Source: Escherichia coli (GTDB lineage: Bacteria > Pseudomonadota > Gammaproteobacteria > Enterobacterales > Enterobacteriaceae). From it: a DNA stretch of 64,000 nt. This document shows positions 5,487 through 64,000 of this stretch, piece after piece. Within the stretch, counting starts at the first letter, position 1. The number at the start of each line of letters is the position of its first letter. Location of the stretch: the NCBI RefSeq assembly GCF_003991155.1, contig NZ_CP031293.1. One strand, given 5' to 3'. A model generated the notes under the pieces. That model made no database searches. It saw only the letters and a program-made list of their open reading frames with translations, and was not told where the DNA came from. Both the position numbers and the translations under genes were made by a program.

Positions 5487-5951
5487 ATGAACTTTCATCA
5501 GTACTATCCTGTCGACATCGTCAACGGCCCCGGCACTCGCTGCACCCTGTTTGTCTCCGGGTGTGTTCATGAATGCCCCGGTTGCTATAACAAAAGCACA
5601 TGGCGGGTAAATTCCGGTCAGCCATTTACCAAAGCAATGGAAGACCAGATCATTAACGATCTGAATGACACTCGTATCAAACGCCAGGGGATTTCCCTCT
5701 CCGGCGGCGATCCGCTGCATCCGCAAAACGTGCCGGATATTCTGAAACTGGTACAACGCATCCGCGCCGAGTGTCCGGGTAAAGACATCTGGGTGTGGAC
5801 AGGCTATAAACTCGACGAACTCAACGCTGCGCAAATGCAGGTTGTTGATTTGATTAACGTGCTGGTCGACGGCAAATTTATGCAGGATCTAAAAGACCCT
5901 TCCCTGATCTGGCGCGGCAGCAGCAATCAGGTGGTGCATCATTTACGTTAG
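5487..5951 (+). CDS. nrdG: Anaerobic ribonucleotide reductase activating protein (radical SAM), 154 aa
   Basis: Translation MNFHQYYPVDIVNGPGTRCTLFVSGCVHECPGCYN with Cys cluster; follows nrdD. Confidence 0.95.
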   Translation: MNFHQYYPVDIVNGPGTRCTLFVSGCVHECPGCYNKSTWRVNSGQPFTKAMEDQIINDLNDTRIKRQGISLSGGDPLHPQNVPDILKLVQRIRAECPGKDIWVWTGYKLDELNAAQMQVVDLINVLVDGKFMQDLKDPSLIWRGSSNQVVHHLR

Positions 5952-6242
5952 TCACTCATCCAGCCGTTTTGTCGCGTCTTCATAAACGGCTGAGTTTTCT
6001 CTCTTACCAATAGCTATCACCAACACGAGTAACTCTTTATCATTGACGGAATAGACCAGGCGATATCCCAGTGTGCGCAGCTTAATTTTGTAGCAGTCCG
6101 GTAAATCCCGCAGTTTAGCCGATGGATTGCGCGGCCTTTTCAGCACATCCTCAAGCTTTTTTTTAAATTGTTCCCGGACTGTCACGCCCAGTTTTTGCCA
6201 CTCTTTCAGCGCCCGCGGATCAAACGCCAGCTCATAGTTCAT
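5952..6242 (-). CDS. RelE/ParE-family type II toxin (mRNA interferase), about 96 aa
   Basis: Translation from MNYELAFDPRALKEWQKLG...LPDCYKIKLR..GYRLVY...GKRENSAVY closely parallels remembered K-12 RelE; start chosen by alignment to RelE (longer ORF start at 6320 rejected). Confidence 0.8.
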   Translation of the reverse strand: MNYELAFDPRALKEWQKLGVTVREQFKKKLEDVLKRPRNPSAKLRDLPDCYKIKLRTLGYRLVYSVNDKELLVLVIAIGKRENSAVYEDATKRLDE

Positions 6243-6474
6243 CCAGTCGGACCTTAATGGCCTCTTGTGGGTTGGCCAGTCGTTCCCTGACAGTGCGTAA
6301 CAAGGCTTCTTCACTATCACTGACAGTGAGCGTTTTTACCGGCATTCGTCCATTTTCCGCAACGTACTGAAACAGCAGCCGCACTGCTTCAGTAGGCGTA
6401 ATATTTAATTTTTCCAGCACCGCATAAGCCTCATTTTTCAGTTTGTCATCCAGGCGGACGTTAAGTGTGGCCAT
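6232..6474 (-). CDS. RelB/DinJ-family antitoxin (ribbon-helix-helix), 80 aa
   Basis: Translation MATLNVRLDDKLKNEAYAVLEKLNITPTEAVRLL...RLDEL parallels K-12 RelB; 3' end overlaps toxin start by 11 nt (typical coupling). Confidence 0.8.
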   Translation of the reverse strand: MATLNVRLDDKLKNEAYAVLEKLNITPTEAVRLLFQYVAENGRMPVKTLTVSDSEEALLRTVRERLANPQEAIKVRLDEL

Positions 6475-6497
6475 TATGCCTCCGGTAATTATGAAAA

Positions 6498-6533
6498 GTG
6501 TAATGCATTATAGCATTACATATGCATTACATT
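6498..6533. promoter_or_regulatory. Repeated palindromic motifs (TGTAATGCATTA / GCATTACA / TGCATTACATT) upstream of the antitoxin gene; candidate autoregulatory operator
   Basis: Read directly; TAATGCATTA is a perfect palindrome and TGCATTACA-like half-sites repeat three times. Confidence 0.5.
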
Positions 6534-6633
6534 CATTTCTGGAAAACGCCTCGCAAAAATGAGGACGACACGCAGGAATATGCCGTGGTGAAGATAGATA
6601 TTGCGGTGATTTTACGAAGGGAGAAGAAAGCGT

Positions 6634-6660
6634 TGGGCGGTAACGTTTCACCGCCCAATA
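6634..6660 (-). terminator. Stem-loop (GGGCGGT...ACCGCCC) downstream of cybC
   Basis: GC-rich inverted repeat just 3' of cybC stop on minus strand; weak U-tract. Confidence 0.4.
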
Positions 6661-6665
6661 AGGAA

Positions 6666-7055
<390 letters not shown>

Positions 7056-55756: not shown

Positions 55757-56502
55757 AGATGCTGGCGGAAAAATGTCACGGCAGCATCTAATGCCTCAGG
55801 CGTAATGCGGTGACGCACGCCAGGCTGCCATGAACAGGTTAGCAGTTTATCCCGTCCCGTCTCGCTTAAGGCCTGCTGCAAACGTAGTGATTCGTCGGCA
55901 GGCACGACGTCGTCGTCAAGGCCATGCCACAGCAGTAGAGGTCTGTCAGCAAGTTGTTCCTGGTGGTTTGTCGCTTCCCACTCTGCCAGCGGCGCGACAA
56001 TGTTATTGAATTCATTCTGCTGTGCTGCCGTTTCAGGTATCAGCGGTGGAAACAGTGAACGGGCGAGCGATGTAAAATAGCCCGATCCCATCATGCTGGC
56101 GGTACATTTCACCGTGGGGTGGCGAGCGGTAATTCCCAGTGCCGTCATCGCGCCCATCGACGCGCCACCGACTGCCAGACGGTCATCACGCAGCCAGTTT
56201 TCTTCGGCTATTGCCGCACGTAAGGTAGTGAATTCCTGCATACTTTGTAGCAAGATTTGCCAGAATTGATTTAACCGCCGCGCTGCGTCGCCACTAAAAC
56301 GGCTACCGTGATCGGGCGCATCCGGCATGATCACCCGCAAACCAGCCTGCGCCAGCGCAACGGCAAAATAGCTATACACCAGACTGGACGAAGTAAAGCC
56401 GTGATAAAAAATCACACACGGTAACGGGGTATCTTTTTGCCCGACAGGATAAGCATGAAGAACGGGAGTATCTGCCAGCTCGCGTGATTCTATTTCAATC
56501 AT
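55753..56502 (-). CDS. yjfP: Alpha/beta-hydrolase esterase (249 aa)
   Basis: Translation [36 protein letters not shown]...GASMG nucleophile elbow. Confidence 0.9.
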
Positions 56503-56683
56503 CTGTCTCTCCTTTTTGTCTGGTATGACATGAAGAAATCCTTAGCACAAGTTTCTGCTGGCGGTATTAGTTCATAATGTTGAGATGTGGGTTACGCTTT
56601 CGTCACGTTTTCATTCGAAAATCGCGTACCAGGTAACAATTCGGGAACATTCCCCCAAAGTTAAATTAATAAGGCACTACACT

Positions 56684-57013
56684 ATGGTTAGCAGGAAACG
56701 TAATAGCGTTATTTACCGGTTTGCCAGTTTATTATTGGTGTTGATGTTAAGTGCCTGTAGCGCACTGCAAGGTACGCCACAGCCAGCACCGCCAGTAACC
56801 GACCATCCGCAAGAGATTCGCCGCGACCAGACGCAAGGGTTACAGCGAATAGGTAGCGTAAGCACGATGGTTCGGGGTTCTCCGGATGACGCATTAGCAG
56901 AAATCAGAGCGAAAGCTGTCGCTGCAAAAGCTGATTATTACGTTGTCGTCATGGTGGACGAAACCATCGTGACAGGACAGTGGTATTCACAAGCCATTTT
57001 GTACCGTAAATAA
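56684..57013 (+). CDS. bsmA: Biofilm/stress lipoprotein BsmA (109 aa)
   Basis: Translation from MVSRKRNSVIYRFASLLLVLMLSACSALQG... (lipobox LSAC). Confidence 0.85.
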   Translation: MVSRKRNSVIYRFASLLLVLMLSACSALQGTPQPAPPVTDHPQEIRRDQTQGLQRIGSVSTMVRGSPDDALAEIRAKAVAAKADYYVVVMVDETIVTGQWYSQAILYRK

Positions 57014-57161
57014 ATCAGACAACTTACATAGTCAGCTTTACATTGCTTTGCGTCCCTATGCGTTTACCTGTGCACAATAAATTACCGGCTGGAAGCTCGG
57101 GCGTTTATTACCGCGATGGAATGCCCTGCAACATGTGGGGAAACGAAAAATGGAGCTGACG

Positions 57162-57437
57162 ATGAAACAATTACTTGCCTCACCCTCGCTGCAATTAGTG
57201 ACTTATCCTGCGAGCGCCACGGCACAGTCTGCAGAATTCGCCAGTGCTGACTGCGTGACGGGCCTGAATGAAATAGGTCAGATCTCAGTTAGCAATATTT
57301 CAGGGGATCCGCAGGACGTGGAACGTATCGTGGCGTTAAAGGCCGATGAACAAGGTGCGTCATGGTACCGCATTATTACCATGTACGAAGACCAGCAGCC
57401 TGATAACTGGCGCGTACAGGCGATACTGTATGCGTGA
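57162..57437 (+). CDS. yjfN: DUF1471 small periplasmic protein YjfN (91 aa)
   Basis: Translation from MKQLLASPSLQLVTYPASATAQSAEF...; GGAG RBS. Confidence 0.85.
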   Translation: MKQLLASPSLQLVTYPASATAQSAEFASADCVTGLNEIGQISVSNISGDPQDVERIVALKADEQGASWYRIITMYEDQQPDNWRVQAILYA

Positions 57438-57462
57438 GTATCATCTACTGCAAATGAACAAT

Positions 57463-57495
57463 GCCGGATGCGGCGCGAGCGCCTTGTCCGGCCTA
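57463..57495. repeat. REP element (GCCGGATGCGGCGCGAGCGCCTTGTCCGGCCTAC)
   Basis: Matches REP consensus. Confidence 0.8.
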
Positions 57496-57553
57496 CAATT
57501 TTAAAATATTTCATTTAGTTAATCGAAACCAGCGTCGCATCAGTCGTATACGC

Positions 57554-59179
57554 TTACAAACACACTCCTCCCGTCGCCCGCAGCAATAAATCATTCTGGA
57601 TCTGCTCTGACAACCGTACGCCGCCGCGCGTATCTAACATCACCTGACACCACGCCTGCGCCATTGGCGGAGAGGCATATTTCAACATTTGCGCACCACA
57701 GCCCAGCAGGAATAGCTGATGAGTAATCTCTCGCCCCAGTTCTTCAGCAGGCTTACGCAGCTGCTGCTGTAAACGACGAACCGCGCGATCAAAATAGCGA
57801 TCCTGTCCTTTCACTTCCACAAATGCTTCCGACAATAAGTCGTATACGCCCGCTTGCTTATTGAGCACGCGCAGCACATCCAGGCACATAATGTTGCCGG
57901 AACCTTCCCAGATACTATTTACCGGCATCTCCCGGTAAAGCCGCGGCAGCTCGCTCTCCTCGCAATAACCAATGCCGCCCAGCACCTCCATCGCTTCGGC
58001 CATAAACGGCATACCTCGTTTGCAGATCACAAATTTCGCCGCAGGCGTAAATAAACGCGCCCACAGGGCTTCTTTGGCATCAGCACGCCGGTCCCACGCT
58101 CGCGCAAGACGAAACAGCAACGCCGTTTGACCTTCAAGCTGAAGCGCCATGCGACTTAAGACATGACGCATAAGGGGCTGTTGGATCAATGGATTACCAA
58201 AAACATGGCGTTGATGTGCATGATAAATCGCCAGCGAAAATGCACGGCGCATCATGGCATGGCTACCCAGGGCGCAATCAAAACGCGTCATCCCTCCCAT
58301 TTTCAGGATCAGACGAGTTCCTTCCCCTTCCTGCCCTAACAACCAGCCAATGGCATCCTGAAACTCCACTTCGCAACTGGCGTTAGAGCGATTACCCAGC
58401 TTATCTTTCAGCCGCTCGAGGCGAATCGCGTTGCGTTGCCCGTCAGGCAAAAAGCGCGGCACAAAAAAGCAGGACAAACCGCCCGTAGTCTGCGCCAGCA
58501 CCAGATGCGCATCGCTTTGCGGCACCGAGAAAAACCATTTATGCCCCACCAGCCGATAAGAGCCATCTTCCAGGCGCTCTGCGCGGGTGGTGTTGCTCAT
58601 GACATCGGAACCGCCCTGCTTTTCCGTCATTCCCATGCCAATCAACAAACCGCGTTTTTGCCCACCTGGCAATAAGTGAGAATCGTAGCGATCGCTCAAC
58701 AGCGGCGTGGTCCAGTCCTGAAACGGCGCGGGTAACATCTGTAACAGCAATGGCGTGGCGGCAAAGGTCATGGTTATCGGACATAACGACCCAGCCTCAA
58801 CCTGCGCATGTAACATAAAACGCGCCGCGCGCGCCACAAATGCGCCGGAGCGAGCGTCTTCTTCCCAGGCAAGATTGTGCACCCGATTGGTACATAGCGC
58901 CTGCATCAGCAGGTGCCAGGCGGGGTGAAAACGCACATCGTCCAGACGGCGTCCTTGCGCATCGTAGCGCAATAATTCAGGCGGATTCACATTCGCCAGC
59001 CGCCCCAGTTCAAGGGATTCAGCCGTCCCTAACTGCTGACCAATACTGGCTAGAAAATCGCTATCCCAGCCAGCACCTTCACGCGTTACCGCTTCGCAGA
59101 GCGCGCCATCAGACAGGTATAAATTGCTGTTATTTAATGGTATAGGTTGATTAAAAACGGTGTGAGTTTGCCAGTGCAC
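57554..59179 (-). CDS. aidB: Acyl-CoA dehydrogenase-family alkylation response protein AidB (about 541 aa, apparent GTG start)
   Basis: Translation ...HWQTHTVFNQPIPLNNSNLYLSDGALCEAVTREGAGWDSDFL... matches AidB; in-frame GTG at 59179. Confidence 0.92.
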   Translation of the reverse strand: MHWQTHTVFNQPIPLNNSNLYLSDGALCEAVTREGAGWDSDFLASIGQQLGTAESLELGRLANVNPPELLRYDAQGRRLDDVRFHPAWHLLMQALCTNRVHNLAWEEDARSGAFVARAARFMLHAQVEAGSLCPITMTFAATPLLLQMLPAPFQDWTTPLLSDRYDSHLLPGGQKRGLLIGMGMTEKQGGSDVMSNTTRAERLEDGSYRLVGHKWFFSVPQSDAHLVLAQTTGGLSCFFVPRFLPDGQRNAIRLERLKDKLGNRSNASCEVEFQDAIGWLLGQEGEGTRLILKMGGMTRFDCALGSHAMMRRAFSLAIYHAHQRHVFGNPLIQQPLMRHVLSRMALQLEGQTALLFRLARAWDRRADAKEALWARLFTPAAKFVICKRGMPFMAEAMEVLGGIGYCEESELPRLYREMPVNSIWEGSGNIMCLDVLRVLNKQAGVYDLLSEAFVEVKGQDRYFDRAVRRLQQQLRKPAEELGREITHQLFLLGCGAQMLKYASPPMAQAWCQVMLDTRGGVRLSEQIQNDLLLRATGGVCL

Positions 59180-59262
59180 TGTGTCTCCCTCCATCAATGG
59201 CAGTCACCATTAGTATGGTCACTGCCATGGATTCATGACAGAAAGAGATTGCTAAAACATTC

Positions 59263-60426
59263 TTATCCAGCAATGTAATGCGGAACGAAACGTGAGGTGT
59301 CTTTGGTGATCAGCGTGTTATCTTCACGGATCCCCATTCCGCACGCTTCATCATCGACAATCCAGCTACCGATGAGTGTGTAGCTATCGCCAAATCGCGG
59401 CAGAGGTTGAAACGCCTGGTAGATCATCGGTTCATCGGCGTAATCACCATCAGCGTGGTCAACGACGTTATTCTGACCGTCGAAAATGGTGACGTTGCCG
59501 CCTTCGCGCGAGTAGATCGGTTTACGCACATAGCTTTCGCCAGCGGCAATCTGCGATTTTTCACCCTCAAACCAGGATGCAAGAAGGTTAGGATGACCAG
59601 GGAAGAAGCGCCAAAGCAGCGGCATTAGCCCTTTATTACTCAAGATACTTTTCCATAACGGCTCCACCCATTGCTCGCGACGCTTGCGCAGCAGCGGACC
59701 GTTATCGTCACGCATCATCCACTCCAGCGGATACAGCTTAAATGCACGCTGGATGACATTATCATCAAGATCGGTCAGTACGCCGCCGACGCCCAAACCG
59801 AGATCTTCAATGTAGATAAACCGCGACTCCTGCCCTGCCTGCTGGGCGCAGTCCTGCAAGTACAGCACGGTACTCCTGTCTTCATCGGTGTCCTGACAGC
59901 AGCAAAAATAAAACGGTTCCCGACTGTAAAGCTCACTAAAGCGCGAAATCAGGCGTTCCTGAATGGCATTGTACTGATCGGCATCACGCGGAACAATGCC
60001 GCTGCGCCGGGCATCTTCCAGCCACAGCCACTGGAAATAAGCCGACTCGTACAATGAAGTTGGCGTATCGGCGTTGTACTCCAGCAGCTTCACCGGCGCA
60101 TTACCACACCAGGCAAAATCCATCCGGCCATACAACGAAGGATCGCGTGCGCGCCAGCTTTCGGCGATCACATCCCAGTACAACGGCGGGATCGCCAGTT
60201 GCGTCAGGATCTCTTCATCTTTAACCGCGCGATCCACCACCTCAAGGCACATCTGATGCAGTTCCGCAGTCGGTTTTTCGATCTGCTCTTCAATCTGGCG
60301 CAGAGTAAAACGGTAAGCCCGACTCTCGTCCCAATAGATTTCATTGTCGATGATATGAAAGTCAAATCCGTTATCGGCGGCAATCCGGTCCAGATCCCGC
60401 CGCACAGGAACATTGTGTCTCAGCAT
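59263..60426 (-). CDS. yjfC: Glutathionylspermidine synthase-like ATP-grasp protein YjfC (about 387 aa)
   Basis: Translation from MLRHNVPVRRDLDRIAADNGFDFHIIDNEIYWDE... Confidence 0.88.
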   Translation of the reverse strand: MLRHNVPVRRDLDRIAADNGFDFHIIDNEIYWDESRAYRFTLRQIEEQIEKPTAELHQMCLEVVDRAVKDEEILTQLAIPPLYWDVIAESWRARDPSLYGRMDFAWCGNAPVKLLEYNADTPTSLYESAYFQWLWLEDARRSGIVPRDADQYNAIQERLISRFSELYSREPFYFCCCQDTDEDRSTVLYLQDCAQQAGQESRFIYIEDLGLGVGGVLTDLDDNVIQRAFKLYPLEWMMRDDNGPLLRKRREQWVEPLWKSILSNKGLMPLLWRFFPGHPNLLASWFEGEKSQIAAGESYVRKPIYSREGGNVTIFDGQNNVVDHADGDYADEPMIYQAFQPLPRFGDSYTLIGSWIVDDEACGMGIREDNTLITKDTSRFVPHYIAG

Positions 60427-60428
60427 GA

Positions 60429-61067
60429 TTAGCCTCCCCAATGCCCACGGGCGCTGGAAGAACGACCATAGCCGCCGCGAGAAACGGTTGACGCTTTTTT
60501 GGTGGTAAAGCCGCCCGAAGAGTAAGACTCTTTTTTGCCAGAACCGGAGCGCCAGGAGTAATCACCGGAAGTGTTGCGCCAGACGGGGCGGGAAGCAAAT
60601 GAGGATCCGCCGCTGTTATAGACGAACGGCTCATCGCGATCTTTACGAATAACCCGGCTTAACAAAAATCCAGAAACGACCGGGATCCAACTCTGTTCAA
60701 CATTGTCGTAGTAACAATTTTCATACTTAGACTGACAATTCTGCTGAGTCATATTCTTCGGAACATCGGCATAAAACGCCGCTTTGGCGTTGTTCCAGCC
60801 ATGAGCACAGATATCTGAATTATTACCGTCATCAATACAATCCTGCACAGTCGAGTAAAACGTTCCGTCGCCGTCGTTATCGACATCGCCACTATCGCCA
60901 CAACCTTTCAATACGAAAAAAGCGGCACCGCCCATTAGCGCCAACGTTAAGTATTTTTGTGCGTAGCGATTGCGACGCGGTTCAAAAGGATTATTCGGTC
61001 TGCCAATGCGACTGATCGCTCCGTGACCAATTTTACTGTTATTTCTTGATTTGCGTTTTCTGGCCAT
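60429..61067 (-). CDS. yjfM: DUF1190 lipoprotein-like protein YjfM (212 aa)
   Basis: Translation MARKRKSRNNSKIGHGAISRIGRPNNPFEP... Gly/Ser-rich C-terminus. Confidence 0.85.
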   Translation of the reverse strand: MARKRKSRNNSKIGHGAISRIGRPNNPFEPRRNRYAQKYLTLALMGGAAFFVLKGCGDSGDVDNDGDGTFYSTVQDCIDDGNNSDICAHGWNNAKAAFYADVPKNMTQQNCQSKYENCYYDNVEQSWIPVVSGFLLSRVIRKDRDEPFVYNSGGSSFASRPVWRNTSGDYSWRSGSGKKESYSSGGFTTKKASTVSRGGYGRSSSARGHWGG

Positions 61068-61076
61068 GATCGTCCA

Positions 61077-61475
61077 TTACCATGTCATACAAGCTGCGTT
61101 AAAAATACCACCAGCCAGTGCGGCGGTTCCCATAAACATTCCTGCTGCGGTATTGTGATTAATAATTTTTTCGCTTAATGCGGGCATATAAAGTCTGACG
61201 CCAGCAAAAACGAGTAACTGAATCACCAGTGCAATCCCGCCCCAGGCGAAATAATCCGGAATACTCACCGCATTGATTGCCGCACTGGATAAGGGGATCA
61301 CGTAACCCAACAATGTACCGCTGAATGCCAGTGACGCCGCGGTATTATTGTTTTTGATTAATTGCCATTCGTTGTGCGGTGTAATTTTGGAGTAGATAAA
61401 CAGAAAAATAATCACCATAGCCACGCCAATAAAAAAATAGGCGCTAAAGGCAAGAAGTGAATCCAGTATATGCAT
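61077..61475 (-). CDS. yjfL: DUF350 inner-membrane protein YjfL (132 aa)
   Basis: Translation from MHILDSLLAFSAYFFIGVAMVIIFLFIYSKI...; ATG at 61475. Confidence 0.85.
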   Translation of the reverse strand: MHILDSLLAFSAYFFIGVAMVIIFLFIYSKITPHNEWQLIKNNNTAASLAFSGTLLGYVIPLSSAAINAVSIPDYFAWGGIALVIQLLVFAGVRLYMPALSEKIINHNTAAGMFMGTAALAGGIFNAACMTW

Positions 61476-61492
61476 CGTAAACGTCCTTGTAA

Positions 61493-62152
61493 TTAACCAA
61501 TAATATGAAGTGATGTCAGCGGGATATCGACACCCAGCGCGCGCGAAAATAACCACTCTGGCTCGCCGAGATCGTTAAAAGATTCCTCACCATTTAGCAG
61601 CAAATATTCGTAAGTATCTTCGGTTACTTGCCGTTGGTAGCCCATGGTAAAATTATGCACTTCCCATTTGGCATGGTTTTGATTTTCTACTTTTTCCAGC
61701 ATGTAGACGGGTTCGATATTTCCCGGTTCTTCGCTGTTAAAAAATCGCTGCCAGCGTTTTTCCTGCCAGTTTAAGGTCATTGCCCCCATCGCTTTGGCAT
61801 TGATCGTCTCGCGCCAGTGACTCTCTTTACTGATACCGTAGCTCTCTTCATAGACAAAGAGCTTGATATCATCAATGTCATCAATATTTTCGCCGCCGGT
61901 GGTATTGATTTGCAGAAACTCATCGCCTGAAGTGTAGTAGCGGAAAATCTGGCTACCGCCGCCCAGATCGATGCGGCTGACGGCGGCTACCGTAAATTCC
62001 TCACCCGGCAGCGCAATCAGCAATTCATCTTCCAGCAAACGAAACGCTAACGTGTCGAGCGTAAAGCCACTATTGAGATGAAGTCCCAGCGGACCACGAG
62101 CGATAGCAGGCTTATTATCCTTGCCAAACAGACGCTGGAAAAAACCAGACAT
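61493..62152 (-). CDS. yjfK: DUF2491 protein YjfK (219 aa)
   Basis: Translation MSGFFQRLFGKDNKPAIARGPLGLHLNSGF... Confidence 0.85.
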   Translation of the reverse strand: MSGFFQRLFGKDNKPAIARGPLGLHLNSGFTLDTLAFRLLEDELLIALPGEEFTVAAVSRIDLGGGSQIFRYYTSGDEFLQINTTGGENIDDIDDIKLFVYEESYGISKESHWRETINAKAMGAMTLNWQEKRWQRFFNSEEPGNIEPVYMLEKVENQNHAKWEVHNFTMGYQRQVTEDTYEYLLLNGEESFNDLGEPEWLFSRALGVDIPLTSLHIIG

Positions 62153-62201
62153 ATTTTATCCTTATAATAGTTGCCAGCCTTGCAGTGAGGCTGGCAAAAA
62201 A

Positions 62202-62900
62202 TTACTCGCCCTGTTGGCGTTGCAGTCTTGCTAATACATCCTGGGCGCTACTTTTATTGCTACCGCCAATTCCGGCTTCCGCCAGCTTTTCATCGAGATC
62301 GCGACCGTCTGCGACTTTTTCCAACTGTGCGGCAGCATCCAGGCGAGCCTGACGTTCGGCCTGACGCGTTTGCAGGCGTTTTAAGGATTCTGCCGCTGTC
62401 GAAACGCTGGAAGATGCGCCAACGGTAGAGGTCGTTACAGCCTGTTGTGCACGCTGCATGGCTTCAGTGGCTTTAACGACTTCCATTTGCTGCTCAAACT
62501 GAGCGATACGCTGCGCTGTCGCTGTAACTGCTTTTTCCACGCCATCACGAGAGACTTCCAGATTCGACAACACTTGCTCTTCAGCGGTAATGAGATTCTC
62601 AAGGCGCGCGATTTCTTCAGCAACTTCGTTAATCAACGACGGATTCACGTTCTTGCTTAACGCTTCCAGCGCACGAGCTTCCAGACTGGCTTTGCGCTCA
62701 CGTAAATCTTTCAGCTTATCGTGACTTAATTTCACTCGCGCCAGCAGATCAACGCGAGATTTTCCGGCTTTATCGAGTTCAGCTTTAGCGTCACGAATAT
62801 GCTGTTCCAGCATGCGCACGCCCTGGGTTTCTTCAATGGACTCTTCCGCCTGGGAGATAAACGATTTCCCCAGCGTAAATAAACTTTTTAAAATCCCCAT
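62202..62900 (-). CDS. yjfJ: PspA/IM30-family coiled-coil protein YjfJ (232 aa)
   Basis: Translation MGILKSLFTLGKSFISQAEESIEETQGVRMLEQHIRDAKAEL... heptad-rich. Confidence 0.88.
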   Translation of the reverse strand: MGILKSLFTLGKSFISQAEESIEETQGVRMLEQHIRDAKAELDKAGKSRVDLLARVKLSHDKLKDLRERKASLEARALEALSKNVNPSLINEVAEEIARLENLITAEEQVLSNLEVSRDGVEKAVTATAQRIAQFEQQMEVVKATEAMQRAQQAVTTSTVGASSSVSTAAESLKRLQTRQAERQARLDAAAQLEKVADGRDLDEKLAEAGIGGSNKSSAQDVLARLQRQQGE

Positions 62901-62918
62901 AAATACCCGTCCTTGTAA

Positions 62919-63320
62919 TTAGTGTGAATATTCTTCTGTAATTTCAGCCAGATCCAATGCGTTATCTACCAGCGAGGTTATCTCAAGCAGAATATCTTCA
63001 AGAGAAGATTTAAGCGATAACGCACCGAAAACAATGTAATACTCTTCCTGTTGCACGCTGGAGATCCCTACCGATGACAACGGCATCATCTTCTGATTTC
63101 TTAATAAGAAGGTATTAAATTCATCTGGATTGCTGATACTACTTACCGGACAAATAAAGGTTTCGATAATCATTTGGCGGGAAGTAAATAGAATATTGAT
63201 TTGCAAATCGCCATAATCATTCATTTTAATAATTAATGCGTTCTCGCTATTTGTTACATCAATATTTTGTTCAGGTACAGTTTGCAGCGCCGTCGCCAGC
63301 GCCAACGGATTCCATGTCAT
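62919..63320 (-). CDS. yjfI: DUF2170 protein YjfI (133 aa)
   Basis: Translation MTWNPLALATALQTVPEQNIDVTNSENALIIKMNDYGDLQ... Confidence 0.85.
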   Translation of the reverse strand: MTWNPLALATALQTVPEQNIDVTNSENALIIKMNDYGDLQINILFTSRQMIIETFICPVSSISNPDEFNTFLLRNQKMMPLSSVGISSVQQEEYYIVFGALSLKSSLEDILLEITSLVDNALDLAEITEEYSH

Positions 63321-63399
63321 ATATTATTCCATATAAATTAAGTTTAAATATTAATAAAATGAATATTTGCAGTACGTAATTATCTTACCAGCTATAGAC

Positions 63400-63432
63400 A
63401 AAAAAAAACCATCCAAATCTGGATGGCTTTTC
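63400..63432 (-). terminator. Rho-independent terminator downstream of rlmB (stem CCATCCA-AATC-TGGATGG with U-run on minus strand)
   Basis: Read directly; A9 run on plus strand equals U-run for minus-strand transcript. Confidence 0.75.
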
Positions 63433-63446
63433 ATAATTCCGAGAAA

Positions 63447-64000
63447 TTAGCTACGCTGGCGTACCGCTTCAAATAAGCAAATGCCTGTCGCCACAGAAAC
63501 GTTCAGCGAAGAAACACTTCCTGCCATGGGGATGCTGATCAACTCATCGCAATGTTCACGGGTCAGGCGACGCATGCCTTCACCTTCTGCGCCCATCACC
63601 AGTGCCAGCCGTCCGGTCATTTTGCTCTGATAGAGTGTATGATCCGCCTCGCCTGCCGTACCGACGATCCAGATATTCTCTTCCTGCAACATACGCATGG
63701 TGCGCGCCAGATTAGTCACCCGAATCAGCGGAACGCTTTCTGCCGCACCACAGGCCACTTTTTTCGCCGTGGCGTTGAGCTGTGCGGAGCGATCTTTCGG
63801 CACAATCACCGCATGAACACCAGCGGCGTCCGCGCTACGCAGGCACGCGCCGAGGTTGTGCGGATCGGTTACGCCGTCGAGGATCAGCAGGAACGGTTGA
63901 TCGAGCGAAGCGATCAGATCCGGCAGATCGTTTTCCTGATACTGCCGTCCTGGCTTCACACGAGCGATAATGCCCTGATGCACGGCACCGTCGCTTTTCT
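63447..64000 (-). CDS. rlmB: 23S rRNA (guanosine2251-2'-O)-methyltransferase, C-terminal part (5' end outside window)
   Basis: Translation ...[50 protein letters not shown]... SpoU/TrmH motifs; frame open to window edge. Confidence 0.92.

Follow-up and report, generated by a model that had tools for sequence, protein, structure and literature searches.

The six adjacent genes yjfIJKLMC of Escherichia coli raise two linked questions, namely whether such different products belong to one functional unit, and what the amide ligase encoded by the last gene acts on. The cluster itself is already known, its operon type was catalogued by comparative genomics in 2024, and it is still poorly understood. 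In the window, the whole 64,000-nucleotide stretch of contig NZ_CP031293.1 that was analysed, positions 59263-63320 of the minus strand carry six co-directional, tightly packed open reading frames corresponding to yjfI-J-K-L-M-C, the product of each matching its Pfam family above the gathering score:

yjfI, 63320-62919, minus strand, 133 aa: DUF2170 (Pfam, 1.5e-44)
yjfJ, 62900-62202, minus strand, 232 aa: PspA_IM30 (PF04012, 5.3e-58), end-to-end match
yjfK, 62152-61493, minus strand, 219 aa: DUF2491 (Pfam, 5.6e-71)
yjfL, 61475-61077, minus strand, 132 aa: DUF350 (PF03994, 1.3e-33)
yjfM, 61067-60429, minus strand, 212 aa: DUF1190 (PF06693, 1.3e-17)
yjfC, 60426-59263, minus strand, 387 aa: GSP_synth (PF03738, 3.3e-149)

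The reading frames lie exactly where the initial annotation had placed them, and the Pfam matches agree with its domain calls (PspA/IM30, DUF350, DUF2170, DUF2491, DUF1190 and GspS-like ATP-grasp). Its gene names are also correct, the stretch being 100% identical to several E. coli chromosomes in which RefSeq names the genes yjfI, yjfJ, yjfK, yjfL, yjfM and yjfC. A longer GTG-initiated frame for yjfL (to 61556) is a mechanical artefact, and the RefSeq annotation has the 132-aa form. From yjfI to yjfC the intergenic gaps are 18, 49, 17, 9 and 2 nt, the last separating the yjfM stop from the yjfC start codon. No internal terminator within the operon is significant, the sole candidate hairpin having a z of -0.74. 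On the same strand, the operon is flanked by rlmB upstream and aidB downstream. The cluster is matched in 5425 of 5426 complete E. coli genomes, with a single place of at least 80% query coverage in 5326 of them.

We read yjfIJKLMC as a single conserved operon of reusable modules acting at the inner membrane, with a probability of roughly 55%. YjfI and YjfJ would form a first module, and YjfL, YjfM and YjfC a second. YjfK would accompany the full system, as would a K+ channel in many species.

As judged from its sequence, YjfJ is a member of the PspA/IM30 (bacterial ESCRT-III) family and shares 39% identity with the PspA encoded in a seven-gene cluster of another species. Its N-terminal stretch 2-19 (GILKSLFTLGKSFISQAE) is amphipathic (hydrophobic moment 0.45, mean hydrophobicity +0.26), and through this stretch YjfJ may bind and stabilise the stressed inner membrane. 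YjfI is an acidic, cytoplasmic DUF2170 protein with neither a hydrophobic segment nor a signal peptide. Its closest solved relative is BacA of Pseudomonas aeruginosa (8Q8O), related over YjfI residues 3-128 at E 1.1e-16, whose crystal structure has a CesT/Tir-like chaperone fold (PMC10948618). YjfI scores 93.7 against a cut-off of 300 for the NCBIfam BacA equivalog and is therefore a relative of BacA, not an ortholog. Deletion of bacA raises the other Bac proteins 6-13-fold (PMC10948618), consistent with the DUF2170 partner being a regulator or chaperone. In related loci the DUF2170 gene always precedes the yjfJ-type gene. YjfI is thus a candidate CesT/Tir-like chaperone or regulator, which would be dedicated to YjfJ. 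In contrast to classical PspA, YjfJ reportedly does not form large oligomers (PMC5333519), an observation that counts against a PspA-type membrane model.

YjfC is an acidic, cytoplasmic ATP-grasp amide ligase, kin of the synthetase domain in glutathionylspermidine synthetase and devoid of a signal peptide. It is identical to the chain in PDB 7UK6/7UK7 ('putative acid-amine ligase YjfC'), and its paralog YgiC (7UK8) matches it at E 6.4e-129. According to citing papers, both enzymes have peptide-spermidine ligase activity in vitro on free peptides, and the physiological substrate is called unknown there (PMC11762307, PMC12506659). The peptide or polyamine conjugation foreseen from the ATP-grasp domain holds good. 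The accompanying view that the genes all lack a defined function is partly overtaken by the YjfC structures and activity, the solved BacA relative, the heat effect of yjfIJKL described below and the 2024 catalogue. It stands for the cluster as a whole, no published function covering all of yjfIJKLMC having been found in the literature searched.

In the second module, YjfC would join spermidine to a peptide carboxylate in the cytoplasm, spending ATP, and would always be co-made with the membrane-anchored YjfM and usually also with YjfL. YjfL is a polytopic inner-membrane DUF350 protein (hydrophobic stretches 3-34 and 72-101), while YjfK is a soluble, beta-rich DUF2491 protein for which no clear relative of solved structure was found. 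YjfM comprises a basic N-tail, a single hydrophobic anchor (LTLALMGGAAFFVL), an acidic domain that contains a DNDGDG motif together with four Cys conserved in the ortholog alignment, a short hydrophobic stretch and a basic disordered tail. This second stretch (residues 126-140) is conserved in a family-wide charge and hydropathy analysis and, at about 13-15 residues in DUF1190 proteins, is too short for a reliable transmembrane helix. A canonical lipobox is present in 104 of 124 DUF1190 family members; YjfM has a non-canonical L-K-G-C. In a minimal DUF1190-like form from Bradyrhizobium, the basic N-tail is followed by only one membrane segment. Given the lipoprotein signals, the acidic four-Cys domain after the anchor and the single-segment form, the tail is most simply, and probably, periplasmic.

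The best-conserved part of YjfM is its extreme C-terminus:

60432..60488, minus strand: coding sequence of the YjfM C-terminal motif (TVSRGGYGRSSSARGHWGG-COOH), proposed YjfC acceptor

The terminal GG is invariant in the alignment of 14/14 YjfM orthologs. DUF1190 proteins almost always end in a small residue, usually as [W/F/M]-Gly-Gly-COOH, and among 124 representatives at 50% identity, 105 end in GG and 13 in GS. Within the species loci described below, 65 of 71 DUF1190 genes encode a GG end, using 12 different codon pairs (penultimate Gly codon GGC in 34, GGT in 14, GGA in 12 and GGG in 5). Because the Gly codons vary freely, the GG end is not merely a ribosome-binding site. It is also retained with downstream gaps of 22-151 nt, and in three loci (L030, L034 and L037) where DUF1190 is the last gene of the cluster and no downstream Shine-Dalgarno sequence is needed. 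Tails ending in SSS, SGS, WGS and ASS still have a neighbouring ligase gene, and Gly-Gly is therefore not strictly required.

The archetypal enzyme, glutathionylspermidine synthetase, amidates glutathione with spermidine at the C-terminal Gly carboxylate, and the ATP-grasp enzyme RimK modifies ribosomal protein S6 at its C-terminus. GspSA and RimK share with YjfC the ATP-grasp chemistry leading from carboxylate through acyl-phosphate to amide, although for YjfC, unlike RimK, a protein acceptor is something we infer. YjfC would add spermidine to the [W/F/M]-Gly-Gly C-terminus of YjfM, YgiB would likewise be the acceptor for YgiC, and the product would be a flexible, membrane-tethered tail capped by polycationic spermidine. 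Taken alone, the proposal that the YjfM C-terminus is the natural YjfC acceptor is tentative and rather improbable. As the tail is probably exported, its modification would need to precede Sec export. The main obstacle is this probably periplasmic location set against a ligase that has no signal peptide and requires ATP. In AlphaFold predictions of a YjfC-linker-tail fusion with 24 paired rows, the tail has a pLDDT of 26-28 and no docking is predicted.

These last points also fit a possible, though less than even, alternative in which the substrate of YjfC and YgiC is a small soluble peptide or metabolite, giving peptidyl-spermidine conjugates to be stored, exported or used in detoxification. 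In that case YjfM and YgiB would act in the periplasm as sensors or scaffolds, with the C-terminal motif binding, for example, the DUF350 protein, lipid, peptidoglycan or metal, and YjfL could export the product. The in-vitro activity on free peptides, the Ser-ending tails that keep their ligase, and the DNDGDG motif with four Cys, suggestive of a metal-binding or redox-sensing periplasmic domain, are in line with it, as is the description of DUF1190 as a metal-chelating lipoprotein by Ravi et al. (PMC11237479). However, it leaves unexplained why the last residues, whose distance from the RGGFG motif varies, are the most conserved of a fast-evolving protein, and why the ligase gene nearly always lies within a few nt of the DUF1190 gene. 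The stop-to-start distance is mostly -1 to 12 nt, and the ligase gene is directly downstream in 9 of 10 sampled DUF1190 representatives.

Turning to the operon reading itself, the suggested co-occurrence analysis was carried out on 80 species loci, each anchored by its ATP-grasp gene, and the gene set recurs as modules: [DUF2170-PspA], with or without a K+ channel, plus DUF2491 and [DUF350-DUF1190-ATP-grasp]. The exact order DUF2170>PspA>(Kch)>DUF2491>DUF350>DUF1190>GSPsyn is found in 26 of the 80 loci, 10 of them without the channel, like E. coli. These loci span Enterobacterales, Alteromonadales, Vibrionales, Oceanospirillales, Pseudomonas, Xanthomonas, Chromatiales, Methylococcaceae and one Desulfurivibrionaceae genome. 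The triad DUF350>DUF1190>GSPsyn accounts for 9/80 loci and the dyad DUF1190>GSPsyn alone, tolC-ygiB-ygiC included, for 28/80. In 43 of the 80 loci the DUF350 gene immediately precedes DUF1190, a count limited to loci with DUF350 next to a detected DUF1190 gene on the same strand. In four Bradyrhizobium loci where DUF350 and the ligase seem to abut, they are separated by a short DUF1190-like gene that has the same C-terminal motif and lies directly downstream of DUF350. The same short gene stands beside the ligase on a fifth contig from Bradyrhizobium, which is truncated upstream.

This architecture reproduces the 'third group' of CesT/Tir-PspA operons of Ravi et al. (mSystems 2024; PMC11237479), which has the same gene set of DUF2170-PspA pair, GspS-related ATP-grasp ligase, DUF350, DUF1190 and DUF2491, whereas E. 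coli yjf lacks the K+ channel gene. In its available text, that study makes a general proposal of polyamine-level or aminopropylation monitoring, and we found no conserved DUF1190 C-terminus or acceptor named there. The modular build over 80 species and the conserved DUF1190 C-terminus as proposed acceptor are new.

The occurrence of the dyad on its own, also as tolC-ygiBC, and of ligase-free operons with DUF2170-PspA pairs (P. aeruginosa bac; Ravi groups 1 and 2) might mean that the PspA module yjfIJKL and the ligase dyad yjfMC are independent units, merely adjacent in E. coli. In the same direction, the PRECISE-1K expression module contains yjfIJKL only, without yjfMC (PMC12492005), which hints that the two halves of the operon can be expressed separately. 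We consider independence unlikely in view of the identical full gene order in 26/80 loci from many lineages, the Pseudovibrio and Vibrio ruber loci, where the order is rearranged yet all genes are still together, and the 9-nt yjfL-yjfM gap with no significant terminator.

A link to heat stress also speaks for the inner-membrane model. The yjfIJKL genes are strongly up-regulated in heat-evolved strains, their higher expression aids growth at 42 °C and above, and from a plasmid they increase the growth rate 1.21-fold at 42 °C (PMC12492005, PMC11472167). Upstream of yjfI lie two features:

63400..63432, minus strand: rlmB intrinsic terminator, a 13-bp hairpin then a nine-T run, directly upstream of yjfI (terminator scan)
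63321..63399, minus strand: AT-rich region upstream of yjfI, GC 0.36-0.40

The terminator has a fold of -18 kcal/mol (z -5.45), and its T-run is the site of the yjfIJKL-activating (T)9->8 mutation, listed in a supplementary table as '(T)9->8 rlmB, yjfI intergenic (+47/-80)' (PMC12492005). In 63321..63399, promoter and motif scans detected no consensus-like sigma-70 or sigma-54 promoter and no TGGCAC-N5-TTGC-like site.

From predicted structures, Rychel et al. 2025 (PMC12492005) proposed instead that the products form envelope pores, with YjfK as a primitive outer-membrane beta-barrel porin, YjfI as a lipoprotein of the periplasm and channels formed by YjfJ and YjfL, the benefit at high temperature arising from membrane crowding or the export of protein aggregates. 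YjfK is indeed beta-rich and YjfL a membrane protein, and we regard these pores as very unlikely. Least credible of all, and already contradicted in the literature, is a second glutathionylspermidine synthetase with which the cluster would buffer thiols and polyamines under stress, a name taken from family annotation: YjfC has the Pfam GSP_synth domain and resembles GspSA and trypanothione synthetase in sequence, but it scores 164.8 against a cut-off of 882 for the GspSA equivalog, lacks the CHAP amidase domain and, like YgiC, reportedly makes no glutathionylspermidine, a result that citing papers state for YgiC, from a study that compared GspSA with YgiC and YjfC (Sui et al. 2012, as cited in PMC11762307 and PMC12506659).

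Among better-known systems, pspF-pspABCDE and Bacillus subtilis liaIH resemble yjf in placing a PspA/IM30 effector beside small membrane proteins and in their link to heat and membrane stress. The envelope-stress likeness drawn in the initial annotation is right in general and for PspA itself. It does not extend to the partners, which are unrelated: PspB, PspC and PspF are all missing from yjf, and yjfI is not preceded by a sigma-54 site. In P. aeruginosa, the bac cluster (bacA-F, from PA3732) likewise opens with DUF2170 and PspA genes, in that order, but a sigma-54 promoter has been proposed for it (PMC10948618). It would belong to the group of CesT/Tir-PspA operons with band-7/flotillin and AAA+ genes described by Ravi et al. 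(PMC11237479), a placement left open by the authors of PMC10948618.

The closest parallel to yjfMC is tolC-ygiB-ygiC, with the same DUF1190/ATP-grasp unit, tightly coupled stop and start, and, reportedly, the same in-vitro activity for YgiC (PMC11762307). YgiB orthologs end in ...TRGGFG...RSMGG-COOH and are encoded beside an OEP/TolC gene. Unlike yjf, this locus has no PspA, DUF2170, DUF2491 or DUF350 genes, and YgiB has a canonical lipobox (LAGC) where YjfM has its long basic N-tail and non-canonical motif. YgiB is described as Cpx-regulated in Citrobacter. According to a citing paper, a tolC mutant, which already grows poorly in minimal glucose medium, does worse when ygiBC and yjfMC are both lost (Dhamdhere and Zgurskaya 2010).

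Open reading frames for all six co-directional genes were confirmed on the minus strand, exactly at the coordinates proposed in the initial annotation, and Pfam confirmed every domain that it had named, namely DUF2170 (YjfI), PspA_IM30 (YjfJ), DUF2491 (YjfK), DUF350 (YjfL), DUF1190 (YjfM) and GSP_synth (YjfC). The features of the region are as follows.

63400-63432, minus strand: intrinsic terminator of rlmB (13-bp hairpin with -18 kcal/mol and z -5.45, then nine T), directly upstream of yjfI
63320-62919, minus strand: yjfI, open reading frame
62900-62202, minus strand: yjfJ, open reading frame
62152-61493, minus strand: yjfK, open reading frame
61475-61077, minus strand: yjfL, open reading frame
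61067-60429, minus strand: yjfM, open reading frame
60426-59263, minus strand: yjfC, open reading frame

From yjfI to yjfC the intergenic gaps measure 18, 49, 17, 9 and 2 nt. Most of the genes are preceded by a recognisable purine-rich ribosome-binding stretch. Several E. coli chromosomes are 100% identical over this stretch, where RefSeq uses the names yjfI, yjfJ, yjfK, yjfL, yjfM and yjfC, and the stretch is found in 5425 of 5426 complete E. coli genomes. yjfIJKLMC is a core E. coli operon, with rlmB on one side and aidB on the other. The cluster is real and already known. A published function for the whole of it, which the initial annotation regarded as the finding that would overturn its view, was not found in the literature searched. 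The accompanying statement that none of the genes has a defined function is outdated in several respects: structures and peptide-spermidine ligation are on record for YjfC and its paralog YgiC, the YjfI relative BacA has been solved (8Q8O), yjfIJKL has an effect in heat, and the operon type has been catalogued. These core genes nevertheless remain largely uncharacterised, and they include the second PspA/ESCRT-III homolog of the best-studied bacterium together with one of its two orphan ATP-grasp polyamine ligases. A role in anti-phage defence was rejected, as no PADLOC model matches: YjfJ gave only weak coiled-coil noise (E 5e-4 or weaker) and the other five proteins nothing. No Rfam family of structured RNA was detected within 56000-64000.

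Ravi et al. 2024 (PMC11237479) describe an operon type in which a CesT/Tir-PspA pair occurs with ATP-grasp, DUF350, DUF1190 and DUF2491 proteins and a K+ channel, and propose a PspA-based system that monitors polyamines. The window holds all six genes of group 3 of that study in the canonical order and lacks the K+ channel gene; the cluster is a channel-less member of this operon class. To survey its composition, one genome per species was scanned, anchored on the ATP-grasp protein, and 80 loci were kept, from Gamma- and Alphaproteobacteria and one Desulfurivibrionaceae genome, which were annotated with HMMs built for this analysis. The full order DUF2170, PspA, (K+ channel), DUF2491, DUF350, DUF1190, ligase is present in 26 of the 80 loci, a DUF350-DUF1190-ligase order in 9, and DUF1190-ligase alone in 28, including the tolC-ygiB-ygiC loci of Citrobacter, Enterobacter and Shimwellia. 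Two Pseudovibrio genomes and Vibrio ruber have a rearranged order with all genes still together. Four Bradyrhizobium loci that seemed to have DUF350 directly before the ligase carry a short DUF1190-like gene (139 aa) in between, and on a fifth contig from this genus, truncated on the upstream side, the same short gene adjoins the ligase. The system is modular.

The channel gene lies between the PspA and DUF2491 genes in 16 of the 26 full loci (L008, L012 and L016-L019 among them), and the other 10 lack it, like E. coli. In L008, one of these loci from other species, Ion_trans_2 was confirmed in the channel gene (5891-6916), along with a weak TrkA_N match. Since the largest intergenic gap in E. 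coli (49 nt between yjfJ and yjfK, 62153-62201) falls where the channel gene sits elsewhere, the E. coli operon looks like a channel-less derivative, or else the channel was inserted in other lineages. Seen from the DUF1190 side, the ligase gene is directly downstream in 9 of 10 sampled family representatives. The distance from DUF1190 stop to ligase start is mostly -1 to 12 nt, and both proteins are therefore probably made together. The only sampled DUF350-DUF1190 pair with no ligase gene downstream (locus L005, 1435-2771) has a gene with a beta/gamma-crystallin domain and a CHASE2 sensor gene in that place; its DUF1190 tail still ends in ...SWGGSRGG.

YjfI, YjfJ, YjfK and YjfC have neither a hydrophobic segment nor a signal peptide, and YjfI, YjfK and YjfC are acidic; the four proteins are most simply cytoplasmic. 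YjfJ scores 196.7 bits against PF04012 (cut-off 33.9) over profile positions 1-220 of 220 and is a member of the PspA/IM30 (bacterial ESCRT-III) family. Over residues 2-19 of YjfJ the hydrophobic moment is 0.45 and the mean hydrophobicity +0.26; the N-terminus is predicted to be amphipathic, as in other PspA proteins, and is a candidate membrane-binding helix. According to PMC5333519, YjfJ is reported not to form the large PspA-type oligomers (rings or rods), and a comparison of YjfJ with PDB sequences at E 0.01 returned no match. YjfI matches PF09938 (DUF2170, 1.5e-44) and aligns over 126 residues with the solved structure of P. aeruginosa BacA (8Q8O, E 1.1e-16), which has been called CesT/Tir-like and whose deletion raises the other Bac proteins 6-13-fold (PMC10948618). 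With 93.7 bits against a cut-off of 300 for the NCBIfam BacA equivalog, YjfI is not an ortholog of this biofilm regulator. YjfL is a small polytopic membrane protein. The DUF350 proteins adjoining DUF1190 that were read (window 61077-61100 and loci L068, L073, L023 and L058) share a near-invariant end, ...NAA[CS]M[TVI][YW]-COOH, which in E. coli YjfL (61077-61100) reads ...FNAACMTW; with it, the DUF350-DUF1190-ligase module has a second protein terminus that is conserved.

YjfC (387 aa) scores 497.5 bits against the synthetase profile PF03738 (pre-ATP-grasp/ATP-grasp). Against the GspSA equivalog NF007801 it reaches 164.8 bits, with a cut-off of 882, and it aligns only to the synthetase part of the 619-residue GspSA (profile positions 487-613; GspSA chain residues 253-444), the N-terminal CHAP amidase domain being absent. 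YjfC belongs to the GSP_synth fold family and is most probably not a glutathionylspermidine synthetase (EC 6.3.1.8): its score stays under the equivalog cut-off, an amidase domain is missing, and the literature reports no such activity. Crystal structures exist for both YjfC (7UK6/7UK7) and YgiC (7UK8/7UKA). As cited in PMC11762307 and PMC12506659, YgiC made no glutathionylspermidine when GspSA was compared with it and with YjfC (Sui 2012), and both YjfC and YgiC ligate spermidine to peptides (Pederick 2023). Their physiological substrate is still called unknown in a 2025 review. Combined loss of ygiBC and yjfMC is cited as aggravating the impaired growth of a tolC mutant in minimal glucose medium (Dhamdhere and Zgurskaya 2010).

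YjfM, encoded 2 nt upstream of yjfC, consists of a 38-residue basic N-tail, a hydrophobic anchor with an invariant LTL..MGG, and an acidic domain with DNDGDG and four invariant Cys, followed by a short hydrophobic stretch that is conserved and by a basic, disordered tail. The basic N-tail is followed by L-K-G-C; the canonical lipobox ([LVI][ASTVI][GAS]C in our test) occurs in 104 of 124 DUF1190 representatives and is absent from the YjfM-like subgroup. These representatives are the full-length sequences at 50% identity from the 619 members collected by an exhaustive profile search. The best-conserved part of YjfM is its extreme end, TVSRGGYGRSSSARGHWGG-COOH. Of the 124 representatives, 105 have Gly-Gly and 13 have Gly-Ser as their last residues, and 115 carry an RGGFG-like motif. 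As the distance from this motif to the terminus varies, what is conserved is the terminus as such. Of the 71 DUF1190 proteins in the species loci, 65 end in GG, mostly after W, M, F or Y. A minimal DUF1190-like protein of Bradyrhizobium (139-143 aa; locus L085, 42-458, and locus L073, 8215-8643) has a basic N-tail and a single membrane segment, and a long linker of Ser and Gly then leads to RGGFGSFGHA.GF.GG-COOH; anchor and C-terminal motif therefore appear to be the irreducible parts of the family.

The last codons of E. coli yjfM, TGGGGAGGC (TGG GGA GGC), contain a GGAGG that serves yjfC, and the terminal Gly-Gly could on this account be no more than the ligase gene's Shine-Dalgarno sequence. 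This was rejected as the main cause, because the 65 genes use 12 codon pairs for GG, only 12 of the 65 have GGA-GGN, and GG is kept where 22-151 nt separate DUF1190 from the following gene or where the cluster ends with DUF1190. Non-GG tails failed as ligase-free controls, since the tails SSS, SGS and WGS still have a ligase next door.

GspS, the archetype of the YjfC enzyme family, uses spermidine to amidate glutathione at its C-terminal glycine carboxylate; RimK, another ATP-grasp enzyme, extends a protein C-terminus. We therefore propose the C-terminus of YjfM as the natural acceptor of YjfC, and that of YgiB for YgiC: the two enzymes would be protein C-terminal spermidine ligases that amidate the [W/F/M]-Gly-Gly-COOH of the DUF1190 protein encoded upstream, probably before export. 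We give this tentative reading a probability of roughly 20-25%. In the yjf operon such C-terminal polyamination would be wired to a PspA/ESCRT-III membrane-repair module.

The topology of YjfM bears directly on this proposal. The lipoprotein signal in 104/124 representatives, the acidic, Cys-rich domain behind the anchor and the single membrane segment behind the basic N-tail of the minimal Bradyrhizobium form make the tail most simply periplasmic, and there it would be out of reach of the cytoplasmic, ATP-dependent YjfC unless modified before export. Under the acceptor proposal the tail would be modified by YjfC in the cytoplasm ahead of export; the Sec substrates AIDA-I and HMW1, which are glycosylated in the cytoplasm, provide a precedent. 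A second transmembrane helix could instead place the tail in the cytoplasm, and the charge pattern (-6 for the middle domain, +7.6 for the tail) and a conserved [W/F]xP..AGF stretch fit such a second pass; it is unlikely, given that the segment has only 13-15 residues and is missing from the minimal Bradyrhizobium form. In an AlphaFold prediction of a YjfC-(G4S)8 linker-tail fusion, run with 24 paired rows, the enzyme was well modelled, and docking of the tail, with its pLDDT of 26-28, received no support. The FKLYPWE motif is invariant in 65 of 65 ligases paired with GG tails, and the Pseudomonas ligases paired with SSS tails (loci L060, L081, L082, L087 and L089) carry Y232H and P233A in this motif. 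Such a correlated change is anecdotal, as it is confined to this one lineage and W84 of the ligase does not track tail type.

C-terminal polyamination of an envelope protein, if true, would be a previously undescribed post-translational modification, and the invariant C-terminus of the neighbour as acceptor would give a biochemical handle on the way in which polyamines connect with envelope maintenance, and also on the phenotype of tolC-ygiBC. If the proposal is false, the cluster is an ordinary, already catalogued operon. The interest that remains in this known cluster lies in the neighbour's conserved C-terminus, which offers a direct experiment on the ligase substrate.

Compared to the classical Psp system (pspF-pspABCDE), YjfJ shares the PspA/IM30 family, whereas the yjf cluster has no PspB, PspC, PspF or sigma-54 promoter; in Pfam searches none of the six proteins matched PspB or PspC, and each matched its own family only. 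The yjf cluster is not the classical Psp system. The psp promoter and the proposed bac promoter are of the sigma-54 type. In contrast, no sigma-54 site (TGGCAC-N5-TTGC-like) was found upstream of yjfI, and such a promoter was rejected; the whole window has 28 matches, fewer than expected by chance. A consensus-like sigma-70 promoter was not found upstream of yjfI either, promoter-like matches across the whole region being rarer than in shuffled sequence. yjfI and its upstream region (62750-63500) have a GC content of 0.36-0.40 versus ~0.51 nearby, and silencing of this AT-rich region by nucleoid proteins is a possibility.

Rychel et al. 2025 (PMC12492005) found yjfIJKL strongly upregulated in heat-evolved strains, and plasmid expression of this module gave 1.21-fold faster growth at 42 °C (PMC12492005, PMC11472167). 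Better growth at lethal-range temperatures once the operon is switched on argues for a real physiological capacity. In the published data, activity of the operon is confined to the heat-evolved strains and a single strain evolved at 42 °C, each of which has the T-run mutation, and the operon is silent in the PRECISE-1K compendium except in strains with that mutation. The supplementary table of Rychel et al. 2025 (PMC12492005) lists this activating mutation as (T)9->8, rlmB/yjfI +47/-80, and it was read there as a promoter change. The site is the nine-T run that forms the U-tract of the rlmB terminator. Because the mutation falls exactly in this run, a promoter effect has an alternative, namely read-through of the terminator from rnr-rlmB. 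The published expression module stops at yjfL (PMC12492005); an internal terminator was rejected as the cause of this boundary, the only candidate hairpin there (61127-61107) being at chance level (z -0.74).

Two further elements lie at the aidB side of the operon. In the interval from the stop of yjfC to the start of aidB, 59193-59232 contains an 18-nt inverted repeat (89% complementary, 4-nt loop) that as RNA would fold with -23.7 kcal/mol (z -4.2) and is not followed by a T-run; it could be an aidB operator, a stabiliser of the mRNA 3' end or an element of the aidB 5' region. On the opposite strand, upstream of aidB, 56585-57437 carries bsmA (biofilm peroxide-resistance protein in RefSeq) and yjfN (DUF1471 family protease activator), a further pair of small envelope-stress genes near the yjf cluster.
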